Assembly: GCA_017940465.1 (NCBI GenBank)
Contig: JAGAYN010000044.1
Coordinates: 3,662-67,661 of the forward strand
Direction: 5' to 3'
Length of the DNA stretch: 64,000 nt
From: Bacteroidales bacterium
Lineage (GTDB): Bacteria > Bacteroidota > Bacteroidia > Bacteroidales > P3
The number at the start of each line of letters is the position of its first letter. Position 1 is the stretch's first letter. The notes under the pieces were generated by a model, which made no database searches, was not told where the DNA came from, and saw only the letters and a program-made list of their open reading frames with translations. Made by a program: the position numbers and the translations under genes. Shown here one piece after another: positions 2,916 to 53,093 of this stretch.

Positions 2916-3091
2916 CTCCCCGTATATTACCAATCCCATCAACTCCCATTAACCCCATGAACAATTCCCCCAATCCCTCGACAATCCTTCGACAATCCTT
3001 CGGCGGTCTTCCCACCCTCTCCCTTCTTCGTGCCTTCTTCGATCCTTCTATGATCCTTACTTTATAACAATGAAAACAAGATAAAAAAACG

Positions 3092-13285: not shown

Positions 13286-14041
13286 ATGCACTTCATTCTA
13301 CATATCTGGCGCCAAGAGAACGCCCGCGCCAAAGGGCACTTCGAGACCTACGAAATCGACAACATCAGCGCCGACTGCTCGTTCCTCGAGATGCTGGACC
13401 AACTGAATGAGAAGCTGGTCAATGACCATATCACCCATCCCGTCTGCTTCGACAACGACTGCCGCGAGGGCATCTGCGGCATGTGCGGCCTCTACATCAA
13501 CGGCCGTCCGCACGGCAACGACGACGGCGTCACCACCTGCCAGCTCCACATGCGCCACTTCCACGACGGCGACGAGATCTGGGTAGAGCCCTGGCGCGCC
13601 AAGGCATTTCCCATTATCCGCGACCTCGTGGTGGACCGCACGGCCTTCGACAAAATCATCCAGGCCGGCGGCTACATCAGCGCCACCACCGGCGGCGTGC
13701 CCGACGCCAACAACATCCTCGTGCCCAAGCACAAGGCCGACCAGGCCATGGATGCCGCCGCCTGCATCGGCTGCGGCGCCTGCGTGGCAGCCTGCAAGAA
13801 CGCCTCCGCCATGCTCTTCGTCGGCGCCAAGGTGAGCCACCTCGCCCTCCTGCCCCAGGGCAAGCCCGAAGCGCAGGACCGCGTCTACAAGATGGTCTGC
13901 AAGATGGACGAGCTCGGCTTCGGCGCCTGCACCAACACCTATGCCTGCGAGGCCGAATGCCCCAAGCAAATCAAGCGCCAGAACATCGCCCGCATGAACC
14001 GCCACTGGCTGGGCAGCCTGCTCGGCCGCGACCGCAACTGA
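13286..14041 (+). CDS. sdhB: Succinate dehydrogenase/fumarate reductase iron-sulfur subunit
   Basis: Cluster motifs [33 protein letters not shown]. Confidence 0.95.
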
Positions 14042-14045
14042 ACGC

Positions 14046-14155
14046 CACCCGGAAGGTATCCTATAGGTATCCCATAGGTATCCTGTAGGTATTTACTTCG
14101 ACTGTGAACCGATATGGCCCACTTCCGGACCACATTCCTCCGCCCGTCGAAAAAA
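14046..14155 (+). repeat. 11-nt tandem-repeat intergenic element, GGTATCC subfamily, copy 1
   Basis: Units GGTATCCTATA, GGTATCCCATA, GGTATCCTGTA, GGTATTTACTT (14055-14098), flanked by CCGGAAG and TTCCGGACCA. About 85% identical by eye to 51183-51285. Confidence 0.75.
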
Positions 14156-14229
14156 CACTTTTCCATTTACCCTGAGTTTCAAGTCCATAGGCAGGGGCAT
14201 CGCCCTTGACAACACACACCACACATTTT

Positions 14230-14285: not shown

Positions 14286-15026
14286 CTATCGCGTGGAGCG
14301 TACAGCGCGAACAGAGATCCCGCCGGCGCGGTCGCGGTCGCGGTAGTCGTAGCCCATGAACTGGTCGTCCAATTCGAAGTAGAAGAACCACGCGTTGTAC
14401 GGGTTACTCTCGTTGAGCGACGAGGACCAGTTGAAGCCGAGGCTGCCGTCGTAGCTGAGCTCGTCGCCCCAGCGATCGCCGGCGGCAGGCAGGAAGAGGC
14501 TGCGGCCGTTAGTTTTGCTGGTTAGTTTGCGGCCGTACTTGCCGTTTTGAGTCGTCCACTCCGAGGTGGTGTTATCGATGAGTTCGTTCCACTCCTCACG
14601 GGTGGGGATGCGGGCTCCGTTGCCAAGTTTGGCGGTGGCAACATCATCGGAGGCCTGCAGGGTTGTGAGGTCATCGGTGAAGCCATTGTAGCCCCAACCG
14701 CTATTGGTGCAGTACTTGGTCAACTGGTCATAATCTCCATTGCAGTACTTGTACGTGCTCCAGTAGTATACGCTCTTGGTCGCAATCTCGCCCCAGGCGT
14801 AATAGTCTCCATACTCCTCGGGCGCGCTGGCACCCACATTGCACGTCGCCCACAAAAGGCCACTGGGCAGTCCCATGTCCACCCACTCGGCAGTCTCCGA
14901 TCCACCACCGCTGCCAGAACCTCCGCCAGGGTTGTCGTTCTTGTCATCATCGTCTTTGCCGCAGGCCGTCATTGCCAGCGCGGCACCCATGGCCACCAGG
15001 GCCAAAAGTTTGAAGGTTTTCTTCAT
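14286..15026 (-). CDS. FISUMP (Fibrobacter succinogenes major paralogous) domain lipoprotein
   Basis: Lipobox LAMTAC. Motifs WATCNVGA, YYAWGE, LFLPAAG and GISVRAVR are characteristic of this domain. Confidence 0.85.
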   Translation of the reverse strand: MKKTFKLLALVAMGAALAMTACGKDDDDKNDNPGGGSGSGGGSETAEWVDMGLPSGLLWATCNVGASAPEEYGDYYAWGEIATKSVYYWSTYKYCNGDYDQLTKYCTNSGWGYNGFTDDLTTLQASDDVATAKLGNGARIPTREEWNELIDNTTSEWTTQNGKYGRKLTSKTNGRSLFLPAAGDRWGDELSYDGSLGFNWSSSLNESNPYNAWFFYFELDDQFMGYDYRDRDRAGGISVRAVRSTR

Positions 15027-30506: not shown

Positions 30507-30622
30507 CCGCGACTGGTCCGGATCGGTCCCGCCACCCGGACCGGCTCCCCACAGACCAACTCCGAGACAACTCCGTATCAACTCCGAGTCAACTCCGAGT
30601 CGACACCGACCCCCCTCCGGAG
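30507..30622 (-). repeat. 11-nt tandem-repeat intergenic element, CGGAGTTGA subfamily, copy 1 (inverted relative to 39424-39556)
   Basis: Units CCAACTCCGAG, ACAACTCCGTA, TCAACTCCGAG, TCAACTCCGAG, TCGACACCGAC (30556-30610). Flanked by CCGCGACTGGTCCGG and CCTCCGG. Confidence 0.8.
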
Positions 30623-39423: not shown

Positions 39424-39556
39424 CCGCCGGAGGAGGGTCGGAGTTGACTCGGAGTTGATACGGAGTTGTCTCGGAGTTGACTCGGAGTTGGTCCCCGGCA
39501 CGCATGTCCGGCTTCCGGAACCCGCCCGGAGCAGCCCCGGACCAATCGCGGAACGC
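39424..39556 (+). repeat. 11-nt tandem-repeat intergenic element, CGGAGTTGA subfamily, copy 2
   Basis: Units GTCGGAGTTGA, CTCGGAGTTGA, TACGGAGTTGT, CTCGGAGTTGA, CTCGGAGTTGG (39437-39491). Flanked by CCGGAGG and CCCCGGACCAATCGCGG. Confidence 0.8.
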
Positions 39557-51182: not shown

Positions 51183-51285
51183 CTCCGGACGGGCAGCGAC
51201 CCTATAGGTATCCCCCAGGTATCCCCTAGGTATTTACTTCGACTGAGAACCGATATGACCCTTTATGGACCATCTGAAAAAAAGT
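51183..51285 (+). repeat. 11-nt tandem-repeat intergenic element, GGTATCC subfamily, copy 2
   Basis: Units GGTATCCCCCA, GGTATCCCCTA, GGTATTTACTT (51207-51239), then CGACTGAGAACCGATATGACCC and ATGGACCA. Aligns with 14046-14155. Confidence 0.75.
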
Positions 51286-51294
51286 GGCTCGATT

Positions 51295-51327
51295 TTTTCA
51301 CCCAGACCGAAAAAAAATGTATCTTTG
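51295..51327 (+). promoter_or_regulatory. Orphan promoter-like sequence (TTTT-N21-TATCTTTG) with no downstream CDS
   Basis: GAAAAAAAATGTATCTTTGCACCC has the same context as functional promoters here. It points toward the nadB 3' end. Confidence 0.4.
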
Positions 51328-51470
51328 CACCCGCCTCCTCGTCTCCTGCCGGGGCTGCGGCAGGTGGTACTCTTCAGCACCGACGGAAAACCGGCTCTCC
51401 GCGCCGAAGCCGACGGCAGCAACCCCCTCCGCATCGACACGCGCCACCACGGCAGGCTCCAAAACAGAAC

Positions 51471-51530: not shown

Positions 51531-53093
51531 CTAACGCAGGTGGTCGAGGCTGTAGTGCAGCCCCACGTTCTCCTTGCGCGCGCGCGCCATCTTTATAATA
51601 AGATAGGAGCAGGCGATAAGGTTGCGCAACTCGGAAAGGGGCTCGGTGAGGACCGAGCGGTTGTAGAGGTCCTCCGTCTCGCGGAAGATGAGGTTCAACC
51701 GGTCGAACGCGCGCTGCAGGCGCAGGTCGCTGCGGACAATGCCCACATAGTTCCACATGATCTCCTGCAGTTCGCGCTTGGTCTGCGTGATGAGAATCAT
51801 CTCCTCGTTGAGCACCATCCCCTCGGCATTCCAGTCGGGCACCCGGGCGTTGAATCCCAACACCTTGACCTCCTCGATGGCCGCCATGGCGGCATTGTGG
51901 GCATAGACCACGGCCTCCAGCAGCGAATTGGAAGCCAGGCGGTTGCCCCCGTGCAGGCCGGTGCACGAGCACTCGCCCGCGGCATAGAGGTGACGTATGG
52001 AGGACAACCCGTTGCAATCCACCTTGATGCCGCCGCACTGGTAGTGGGCCGCCGGGCGGATGGGAATCATGTCCTTCGTGATGTCGATGCCTACGGAAAG
52101 GCACTTGGCATAGATGGTGGGGAAGCCCTCGATGAGCTGTTGGCGTCCTATGGGTCGCGCATCCAGGTAGAGGTACTCCCTGCCGCTGGTCTTCATCTCG
52201 TTGTCGATGGCGCGGGCCACGATGTCGCGTGGCGCCAGCGAGAGGCGCTTGTCGTATTTCTGCATGAACTCCTTCCCGTCGCGGTCCTTCAGGATGGCCC
52301 CCGCGCCGCGCATGGCCTCGGTGATGAGGAAGGCGGGCTTCTCGGCCGGATTGTAGAGGCTGGTGGGATGGAACTGCATGAATTCCAAGTCGCTGAGCAC
52401 GCCGCGGGCACGATGCACCATGGCCACGCCGTCGCCGGTGGAGATGACGGGGGTGGTGGTGGTGGTGTAGACGTTGCCCATGCCGCCGGTGGCCAGGAGG
52501 GTCACCTTGGCCAGGTAGGTATCGATGCGGTTGGTGTCGCAATCGAGGGCGTAGACCCCATAGCACTCGATGCCGGGCGTGTGCTTGGTGACGCGCTGCC
52601 CGAGGTGGTGCTGGGTGATGATGTCGATGGCGAACTGGCGTTCCTTAATCTCTATGTTGGGATGGTTGCGGGCAGCCTCCAGCAGGCCGCGCTCGATCTC
52701 CTCGCCGGTGTTGTCCTTGTGGTGGAGGATGCGGAACTCGCTGTGCCCGCCCTCGCGGTGCAGGTCGAAGCGGTCGCCTTGCAGGTCGCGGTCGAAGCCC
52801 ACGCCGTACTGCACCAGCTCGCGGATGCGGTCGGGGGCCTGGCGGATGGTCATCTCCACCACCTCGCGGTCGCAGATGCCGTCGCCCGCCACAAGGGTGT
52901 CCTGGATATGCTTGTCGAAGGAGTCGCTGTCGTACATGACGGCGGCGATCCCGCCCTGCGCATAGCGCGTGCTCCCCTCGCGGGCCTCGCCCTTCGACAG
53001 GACACACACCTTGCCGTAAGGGGCCACCTTGAGGGCAAAACTCAAGCCGGCGATGCCGGAGCCGACAACCAGAAAGTCTACTTCGTATCTCAT
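51531..53093 (-). CDS. nadB: L-aspartate oxidase
   Basis: DFLVVGSGIAGLS FAD fold and YAQGGIAA. Flavoprotein homologous to SdhA but about 520 aa. Confidence 0.92.
   Translation of the reverse strand: MRYEVDFLVVGSGIAGLSFALKVAPYGKVCVLSKGEAREGSTRYAQGGIAAVMYDSDSFDKHIQDTLVAGDGICDREVVEMTIRQAPDRIRELVQYGVGFDRDLQGDRFDLHREGGHSEFRILHHKDNTGEEIERGLLEAARNHPNIEIKERQFAIDIITQHHLGQRVTKHTPGIECYGVYALDCDTNRIDTYLAKVTLLATGGMGNVYTTTTTPVISTGDGVAMVHRARGVLSDLEFMQFHPTSLYNPAEKPAFLITEAMRGAGAILKDRDGKEFMQKYDKRLSLAPRDIVARAIDNEMKTSGREYLYLDARPIGRQQLIEGFPTIYAKCLSVGIDITKDMIPIRPAAHYQCGGIKVDCNGLSSIRHLYAAGECSCTGLHGGNRLASNSLLEAVVYAHNAAMAAIEEVKVLGFNARVPDWNAEGMVLNEEMILITQTKRELQEIMWNYVGIVRSDLRLQRAFDRLNLIFRETEDLYNRSVLTEPLSELRNLIACSYLIIKMARARKENVGLHYSLDHLR

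Follow-up and report, generated by a model that had tools for sequence, protein, structure and literature searches.

The window, a 64,000-nt stretch of one contig from the metagenome-assembled genome of an uncultured rumen Bacteroidales bacterium (MAG; 2.24 Mb in 56 contigs, 59% G+C, 94% complete), contains two copies of an intergenic element built from 11-nt direct repeats and a tail, referred to here as the GGTATCC element. The first copy lies in the convergent gap between sdhB (+ strand, ending at 14041) and a weakly FISUMP/Lcl_C-like gene of 246 aa (− strand, ending at 14286), and begins 8 nt past the sdhB stop codon (14039-14041). The second is antisense to both of its neighbours, being ~245 nt upstream of the start of atpE (50946, − strand) and 255 nt beyond the stop of a nadB-like gene (51531, − strand). 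A sequence-only reading of the window had described two 11-mer arrays with a common tail in these gene contexts, and we confirmed it by direct reading and by alignment of ~87 nt with the family consensus, which identified the same element at both loci. Its parts are as follows.

14049..14135 (+): GGTATCC element copy 1, 87 nt, matching the family consensus from end to end
14049..14055 (+): left end of copy 1, CCGGAAG, a variant of the family's (T)CCGGCAG
14056..14088 (+): three A units of copy 1, GTATCCnnTAG, with linkers TA, CA and TG (direct reading, TRF and family profile)
14089..14105 (+): junction of copy 1, GTATTTACTTC-GACTGT, the best-conserved part of the family
14106..14135 (+): tail of copy 1, 10-bp B units GAACCGATAT GGCCCACTTC CGGACCACAT, a minority variant in which a short hairpin is possible
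51190..51276 (+): GGTATCC element copy 2, 87 nt, identical to the consensus over the 33-nt core
51190..51207 (+): left end of copy 2, CGGGCAG, and first unit CGACCCTATAG (GGACCC-type); consensus CCGGCAG-GGACCCTnTAG
51208..51229 (+): two A units of copy 2, GTATCCCCCAG GTATCCCCTAG (direct reading and TRF)
51230..51246 (+): junction of copy 2, GTATTTACTTC-GACTGA (direct reading and family profile)
51247..51276 (+): three B units of copy 2, GAACCGATAT GACCCTTTAT GGACCATCTG (direct reading and family profile)

The array at 14056-14099 reads GTATCCTATAG GTATCCCATAG GTATCCTGTAG GTATTTACTTC, that is, three GTATCCnnTAG units and a fourth unit, while the array at 51208-51240 reads GTATCCCCCAG GTATCCCCTAG GTATTTACTTC, two units followed by the same last unit; both run on into GACTG(T/A)GAACCGATATG(G/A)CCC. 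TRF assigned period 11 to both arrays, with 3.5 and 2.5 copies, respectively, and the window contains exactly two occurrences of the 17-mer GGTATTTACTTCGACTG, where 0.1 would be expected. The TAG triplets of the A units of copy 1 are spread over all three frames.

Other short features share the window with these copies. A REP, caagtccataggcaggggcatcgcccttg, of the CGTAGG-containing kind that flanks the Y1 genes described below, lies at 14180-14208, 45 nt past copy 1. A well-formed Bacteroidetes-type promoter box, aaaaaaaatgtatctttgca, lies at 51318-51340 (+) and is directed into the 3'-terminal part of the nadB-like gene (51531-53093, −). An antisense RNA or small RNA may be driven from this box; the DNA downstream of it holds neither an ORF nor an Rfam match. 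Further period-11 arrays, of the CAATCCTTCGA and CAACTCCGAGT types and belonging to separate families, are found at 2971-3058, 30557-30609 (+) and 39438-39490 (−).

Across the genome, the core of the GGTATCC element matched at 112 places (24-mer with at most 2 mismatches; 63 forward and 49 reverse), the reversed control pattern of the same search at none, and a 16-mer anchor recovered 117 copies. The sequence-only reading had counted four elements in 64 kb, which is too low: the GGTATCC element is a family of 112-117 genome copies and not a private pair. We found 0 matches among 24 same-genus species and 16 other families, nor was the element found in any of 30 same-genus genomes overall, and a two-unit pattern that gave 100 matches in its own genome gave no more than two chance matches per genome over 400 genomes of the order. 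Among ~185,000 species representatives, an exact 19-mer occurred in only two unrelated genomes, both stray matches, and searches of JGI metagenome contigs, plasmids and phages did not find the element. Three matches to viral contigs were set aside as chance, all of them falling inside one phage gene. The GGTATCC element is a real, abundant and species-restricted interspersed repeat.

Position-wise conservation over 111 copies revealed the layout (T)CCGGCAG - GGACCCTnTAG - GTATCCnnTAG (one to three times) - GTATTTACTTC GACTG(A/T) - GAACCGATAT GA(A/C)C(G/C)nTTAT GGACCAcTTG, with (T/C)CCGG following at the right end in some copies, and a length of ~87 nt (roughly 90) that includes a 45-nt tail. 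The A unit has an 11-bp period, composed of a 9-bp near-invariant core (TAGGTATCC) and a 2-bp variable linker that takes only about six forms (GG, CC, TG, TA, CA and TC). Because the 11-bp units share one orientation, they lie on one face of the helix; the period of the B tail is 10 bp. Counting the first unit, 33 copies carry two A units, 61 carry three, 13 carry four and a single copy carries nine, the longest array extending over 9.5 units. The array is followed by an invariant junction, GTATTTACTTCGACTGW, and then by three 10-bp units, GAACCGATAT/GAACGCTTAT/GGACCAcTTG. The most conserved part of the family is this 28-nt junction, identical to the consensus in 69 of 111 copies, and the median identity is 88% over 76 nt (111 copies). 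Pairs of B units were found behind the junction in 89 of 91 cases, and since they are almost confined to its 3' side the element can be taken as a single unit.

The ends of the element are less regular. CCGG stands at a fixed offset to the left of the first unit in 36 of 111 copies, compared with 0.46% per position in distal flanks, and at a fixed offset on the right in 14-19 of 111. The terminal pair TCCGGCAG ... CTTG(Y)CCGGA forms a weak inverted repeat, and the end words GGGACCC and GGACCA are merely GGWCC-like. At 15 copies with both ends we found no flanking direct repeat that would indicate a target-site duplication. For each of the six reading frames, 69-99% of copies contain a stop that closes it.

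Folding tests gave no sign of structure on either strand. The consensus folded worse than dinucleotide shuffles (z of +0.96 and +1.77 for the two strands), the window copies were unremarkable (z between −1.7 and +1.1), and mutual information over 99 copies was confined to neighbouring linker bases and joined no distant columns. Rfam 15 gave no match to the element at gathering score, and one tRNA alone in the whole window. About 10% of copies, including the one at 14049, carry an inverted B unit in the tail and are hairpin-capable. RNA or single-stranded DNA structure was ruled out by folding both strands, by the covariation test and by the Rfam search, and Rho-utilisation-like C-rich RNA was ruled out by base count, G and C being roughly balanced in the consensus. 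Because direct repeats stand one helical turn apart and do not fold, it is probable that some protein reads the element as duplex DNA.

The sequence-only reading had placed the GGTATCC and CAACTCCGAGT arrays on one scaffold, with CCGGA before the array and GGACCA after it. The genome contains 42 CAACTCCGAGT arrays, two of them in the window; GGACCA follows none (random intergenic control, 1%) and CCGGA precedes only seven (control, 4.4%), so the scaffold is not a family feature. These arrays have no conserved flanks, and their sides are degenerate nnnnTCCGAnn units. Even inside the GGTATCC family, a genome search for the exact word pair recovered it in only 3 of 116 arrays, and what stands of the proposed flanks is their looser forms, namely CCGG at the fixed left offset and G(G/A)(A/C)CC at +38. 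The accompanying idea of exchangeable modules fails for the grouping with CAACTCCGAGT arrays and holds in another place, where GGTATCC units and the CCGGCAG left end head two families. In the first (~106-117 copies), GGTATCC units lead into the GTATTTACTTCGACTG-GAACCGATAT tail. The second consists of 30 arrays of 3-5 CTGTTCT(T/A)TAA units (CTGTTCTTTAA arrays, or C arrays), each preceded by one to several GGTATCC-type units and often also by the CCGGCAG start. Overall, 116 GGTATCC arrays continue into a B tail in 106 cases, a C array in 5 and other sequence in 5, and B units resemble the reverse complement of C units.

Arrays of period 11 are strongly over-represented in this genome: TRF gave 394 rows of this period, compared with 109 rows for period 10 and 22 for period 13. 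Those of at least 2.5 units number 281, of which 241 are in gaps, and one third of gaps of at least 150 nt contain a period-11 array. The same excess was seen in the 5.7-kb sdhB neighbourhood of 80 related species, about 11 of which have an unrelated 11-mer array directly 3' of sdhB. The relative UBA3630 (locus L012, 3410-3460; genomes G431/G013) has its own family, CGGACCAYCYY, with 444 overlapping matches, about one every 5-6 kb. Another relative, UBA3834 (locus L037, 3344-3398; genome G432), has the family GACGGAG(G/T)TGA with 140 matches, and its 9-bp core, CGGAGTTGA, is common to this genome's CAACTCCGAGT arrays. Relatives thus have high-copy 11-mer families of their own, CGGACCAYCYY and GACGGAGGTGA among them.

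Gene context was taken from a self-trained codon-usage gene caller, which is crude and missed some atypical genes; on this basis, 115 of 117 copies are intergenic, and no gap holds more than one. Most copies lie less than 30 nt from the stop codon that faces them, and start codons are about 100 nt or more away. Stop codons of 29 genes lie within a copy, so that about a quarter of copies overlap a stop. Convergent gaps hold 23 of 104 copies (22%) compared with their 10.5% share of gaps (p=6e-4), divergent gaps hold 17 of 104, and in tandem gaps 50 copies are antisense to both neighbours versus 16 sense, a ratio of ~3:1 (p=3e-5). Where an intrinsic-terminator-like hairpin is present, it lies between stop and element in 21 cases and beyond the element in 7; at 88 of 119 facing gene ends the gap is free of such hairpins. 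Copies are also over-dispersed along the chromosome, with 3 neighbour distances below 3 kb where 10.9 were expected from random gaps (p=0.003), and neighbouring copies tend to be co-oriented (23 switches in 76, p=8e-4).

Several copies have distinctive surroundings, given here by contig of this genome (G000). Two large secreted-protein ORFs of 402 and 468 aa at C3:37986-40634 (287-1495 and 1529-2935 of locus L118) were overlooked by the codon-usage caller, and missed ORFs of this kind beside element copies suggest atypical, possibly foreign, codon usage. About 12 copies carry a 5' fusion to the module ctccacattccacgccccctctcttgaaaggagaggggg..ggccctcc (C3:41010-41068, C50:2940-2994, C37:86490-86545, C11:39186-39245 and ~8 more, several at contig ends), a module that lies 330-400 nt upstream of paralogous genes for secreted or T9SS-type proteins. 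A near-palindrome, GTTAAT(n)TTAAC(A) (tgttaatagatgttaaac / gttaattttaacac), recurs beside GGTATCC arrays; it is also seen in short leaders, some 50-70 nt away from the start codon, and may be an operator or promoter element of a paralogous gene family. Its sites are:

C27:67201: GTTAAT(n)TTAAC(A) site
C56:3393 (−): GTTAAT(n)TTAAC(A) site
C40:49613 (−): GTTAAT(n)TTAAC(A) site
upstream of ~9 element copies, e.g. C3:15490-15530: GTTAAT(n)TTAAC(A) sites

We also compared the two loci of the window between samples. The exact sdhB protein was found on 16 contigs from other samples and the exact nadB-like protein on 17, and all aligned contigs that span the element are identical, base for base, over 252 nt at copy 1 and 381 nt at copy 2. 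The strain-level variation in copy number raised by the sequence-only reading was thus not seen at either locus. Two contigs from other samples terminate inside the element, as expected of a repeat.

The explanation we favour, with moderate confidence, is that the GGTATCC element is a dispersed, non-autonomous repeat and that its phased units serve as a putative platform for protein binding on duplex DNA. Most likely, it is a small DNA element that copies itself or has an architectural role and does not switch neighbouring genes. The element would have been copied to at least 112 intergenic places after the species split from its congeners, and would land or survive only in the promoter-free stretch just 3' of stop codons, where insertion would often swap the last codons and stop of a gene for element sequence. 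If it has a function at all, it would act as duplex DNA and not through a fold in RNA or a hairpin in single-stranded DNA, its phased direct repeats allowing a trans-acting protein to bind cooperatively with one subunit per helical turn; the putative bound protein would be either an element-copying enzyme or a nucleoid or topology protein. Against this explanation, no movement event was seen, the window copies being identical in all aligned spanning contigs. A search of the genome itself yielded neither paralogous flanks nor an empty site, and the intergenic DNA downstream of sdhB in relatives is too diverged to align for an empty-site comparison. The target-site duplication is absent, the terminal inverted repeat is weak, and a transposase with matching ends was not found in the 94% complete MAG. 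Perfect cores beside free linkers could also mean that the host selects on each copy.

In an alternative that we consider unlikely, the element is architectural and host-selected: gyrase, an HU/IHF-like protein or another nucleoid protein would bind or wrap the arrays at operon ends, relieving supercoiling or insulating transcription units, and spread would be mere delivery of sites. Roles in supercoiling relief or insulation have been proposed for the BIME/REP sequences of E. coli. Such a role is consistent with the location of copies at transcription-unit boundaries near stops, the twofold enrichment in convergent gaps, the single copy per gap and the over-dispersion, as well as with invariant cores joined by variable linkers and the stability of copies between samples. 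It would also fit the period-11 array in a third of gaps of at least 150 nt and the unrelated 11-mer arrays that ~11 of 80 related species have in the same gap downstream of sdhB. However, the family is absent from every congener searched, so that no position is conserved, and selfish DNA under selection predicts the same pattern because convergent gaps and gene 3' ends are the safest places to land.

The orientation of copies could reflect replication as well as transcription. As a replication-skew proxy we used GC skew at third codon positions, averaged over both gene strands and with neighbours within 4 kb excluded; plain GC skew was dropped as a marker, being confounded by coding-strand composition. 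By this proxy, the sense strand of the element lies on the C-rich, lagging-like strand in a ratio of 55:21 (p=1e-4), and in convergent and divergent gaps in a ratio of 21:9. In tandem gaps, copies beside genes on the leading-like strand are antisense in 26 cases versus 5 sense, compared with 7:8 for genes on the other strand, and from these ratios gene direction and larger-scale strand therefore both seem to matter. A replication-associated strand polarity of the element is suggestive only, because the proxy flips sign within several contigs. We regard it as quite unlikely, on the polarised, co-oriented and over-dispersed arrangement, that the arrays are a lineage-specific chromosome code for a machine that moves or assembles directionally, for instance a Chi- or KOPS-like signal read by a translocase or repair nuclease, or sites for target immunity or domain boundaries; fast co-evolution of the reader with its sites would then give each Bacteroidales species a unit sequence of its own.

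We looked in the genome for an enzyme that could copy the element. DDE_Tnp_1 was not found in the MAG, which is 94% complete and in which repeats break assembly, and rve appeared below cut-off only. No long repeat carries the element ends, and tyrosine recombinases number two in the 94% complete MAG. The transcription units of both recombinase genes have a GGTATCC element at the 3' end, at distances of 5 nt and ~380 nt, an adjacency noticed post hoc with a chance probability of roughly 0.005:

C32:68883-68971: GGTATCC element, beside the tyrosine recombinase gene at C32:68976-69914
C40:27068-27156: GGTATCC element, near the tyrosine recombinase gene at C40:27532-28431

The 246-aa gene next to copy 1 was rejected as a partner, being merely a weakly FISUMP/Lcl_C-like paralogue of a lipoprotein family. 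The genome also encodes six diverged Y1 (IS200/RAYT-like, Y1_Tnp) genes, the most within the genus sample:

C10:24372-24839: Y1 gene
C49:43434-43898: Y1 gene
C27:16430-16879: Y1 gene
C15:50085-50507: Y1 gene
C49:31627-32100: Y1 gene
C49:29633-30079: Y1 gene

These genes have the DH[IV]H / WQ / YIxxQxEHH motifs of subclass 1.2 in the scheme of Quentin et al. 2018, and one scores above the NCBIfam IS200 cut-off. Hairpin repeats were reported to be missing from subclass 1.2. In this genome, all six Y1 genes have flanking REP-like hairpin clusters, different for each gene; these contain CGTAGG, are low-copy and are unlinked to the GGTATCC element. The nearest copies of the element lie 0.9-1.6 kb from Y1 genes, and only the longest array, of 9.5 units, abuts a REP cluster, that of the best-scoring Y1 gene.

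An atypical HUH/Y1 transposition through single strands, in which one of the six Y1 proteins copies the element from the lagging-strand template, would account for the asymmetric ends, the missing target duplication and the strand polarity, and we judge it highly unlikely. Its evidence includes, besides the number of Y1_Tnp genes and the contact between the 9.5-unit array and a REP cluster, the lagging-like bias itself, which persists in convergent and divergent gaps, where gene direction cannot explain it, and reaches 16:2 by the skew proxy in the CTGTTCTTTAA family, which has A units in common. GTAGG occurs in about half of units, and the lack of both a target-site duplication and a strong terminal inverted repeat is likewise in keeping with Y1 activity. 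However, Y1 enzymes require a hairpin that the element does not have, every Y1 gene is flanked by different repeats of its own, and the skew proxy, which flips inside several contigs, is no clean replication marker. The Y1 gene next to the longest array has orthologues (64-77% identity) in five congeners without the GGTATCC element, and three congeners without any Y1 gene still have the period-11 excess. A partnership with a Y1 enzyme of the RAYT type was therefore rejected as the simple answer.

The sequence-only reading had pictured a cis-regulatory architecture with exchangeable recognition modules for specific regulators, linked to promoters such as that of atpE, and this is very improbable. 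Pho boxes and other sites of response regulators are built as 11-bp phased direct repeats around a core of 7-9 bp; Bacteroidetes-type TAnnTTTG boxes lie 40-90 nt downstream of some copies, and A units are common to two families with different 3' modules. But nothing connects the element to promoters or to a specific regulator: copies lie near stop codons and are enriched in convergent gaps, gene 3' ends are preferred over 5' ends with only 17 of 104 copies in divergent gaps, and ~115 sites beside unrelated genes in a single species make no regulon pattern, while the scaffold with CAACTCCGAGT arrays fails. Equally improbable is an RNA-level element, an unstructured 3'-UTR or small-RNA module whose repeated GGAUACCUA, on the usually transcribed (antisense) strand, would be bound by an RNA-binding protein: the 3:1 orientation bias against flanking genes, the site right after stops and the 88 of 119 facing gene ends without a recognisable intrinsic terminator in the gap would fit it, but there is no fold, covariation or Rfam match, the bias vanishes for genes on the lagging-like strand (7:8), and about a quarter of copies lie in convergent gaps, where either strand could be read.

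The closest published analogue of the GGTATCC element is BrickBuilt, a minisatellite-MITE of Porphyromonas gingivalis (Klein et al. 2015, PMC4596501), and our literature search found no published description of such elements apart from it. The units of BrickBuilt are 23 nt long and are repeated 1-23 times; its leaders and tails reach ~300 nt, it has 19 copies in all, and the IS5-type terminal inverted repeats (GAGACCTTTGCA) in leader and tail match resident ISPg elements (PMC4596501). Like the GGTATCC element, BrickBuilt belongs to the order Bacteroidales, is strictly intergenic and is confined to one species (plus, for BrickBuilt, a sister species). Both run from a leader through head-to-tail units to a tail, with conserved and free unit positions and a variable unit number, and both occur in genomes with several repeat families. 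Unlike BrickBuilt, the GGTATCC element has 11-nt units in 2-4 copies, a 45-nt tail and ~115 copies, and its ends are CCGGCAG and GGACCA, with no IS5-like end and no DDE_Tnp_1 found.

Other dispersed repeats resemble the element in part. The REP, BIME and REPIN sequences of Proteobacteria, with their RAYTs, are also high-copy and extragenic, occur near gene 3' ends and in convergent gaps, and form mosaics drawn from a small set of motifs. In contrast to the GGTATCC element, which folds worse than shuffles, REPs are imperfect palindromes that fold, and a RAYT is flanked by its cognate repeat, whereas the GGTATCC element flanks no Y1 gene here. BOX of Streptococcus pneumoniae, with the structure boxA-(boxB)n-boxC, is present in ~100 or more intergenic copies in a ~2-Mb genome. 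It shares with the GGTATCC element a modular head, middle units of variable number, a tail, an intergenic location and a similar copy number, but its units are 45-59 nt, boxA and boxC form a stable stem where no fold is seen here, and the sequences are unrelated.

The geometry of the array recalls a different class of site. At the parC iterons bound by ParR, at the low-affinity DnaA-box arrays of oriC (9-mers 2 bp apart) and at Pho boxes (7+4 bp), the layout allows a protein to oligomerise along one face of the DNA, and the element would work in a similar manner. Like the GGTATCC element, such iteron and operator arrays are direct repeats in one orientation with an 11-bp period and a constant core (7-9 bp) plus 2-4 free bp; unlike the ~115 dispersed copies here, they lie at one or a few loci beside the genes they serve and have known partners, and the core of the GGTATCC element is not a DnaA box. 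The element belongs to none of BrickBuilt, REP/REPIN, BOX and the Rfam families; its lifestyle is like theirs, and its geometry is iteron- or operator-like.

To our knowledge, nearly all well-studied small interspersed repeats of bacteria (REP, BOX, ERIC, Correia and most MITEs) are folding palindromes. Such repeats shape bacterial chromosomes, and the GGTATCC family and its counterparts in uncultured Bacteroidales are of another kind, non-folding direct repeats spaced one helical turn apart. Period-11 arrays break MAG assemblies, supply the stop codon of ~29 genes and turn over completely between species of one genus. If the protein reading or copying the arrays were identified, an untouched area of Bacteroidales genome biology would be opened, and rumen and gut metagenomics would gain a marker specific to the species or strain.
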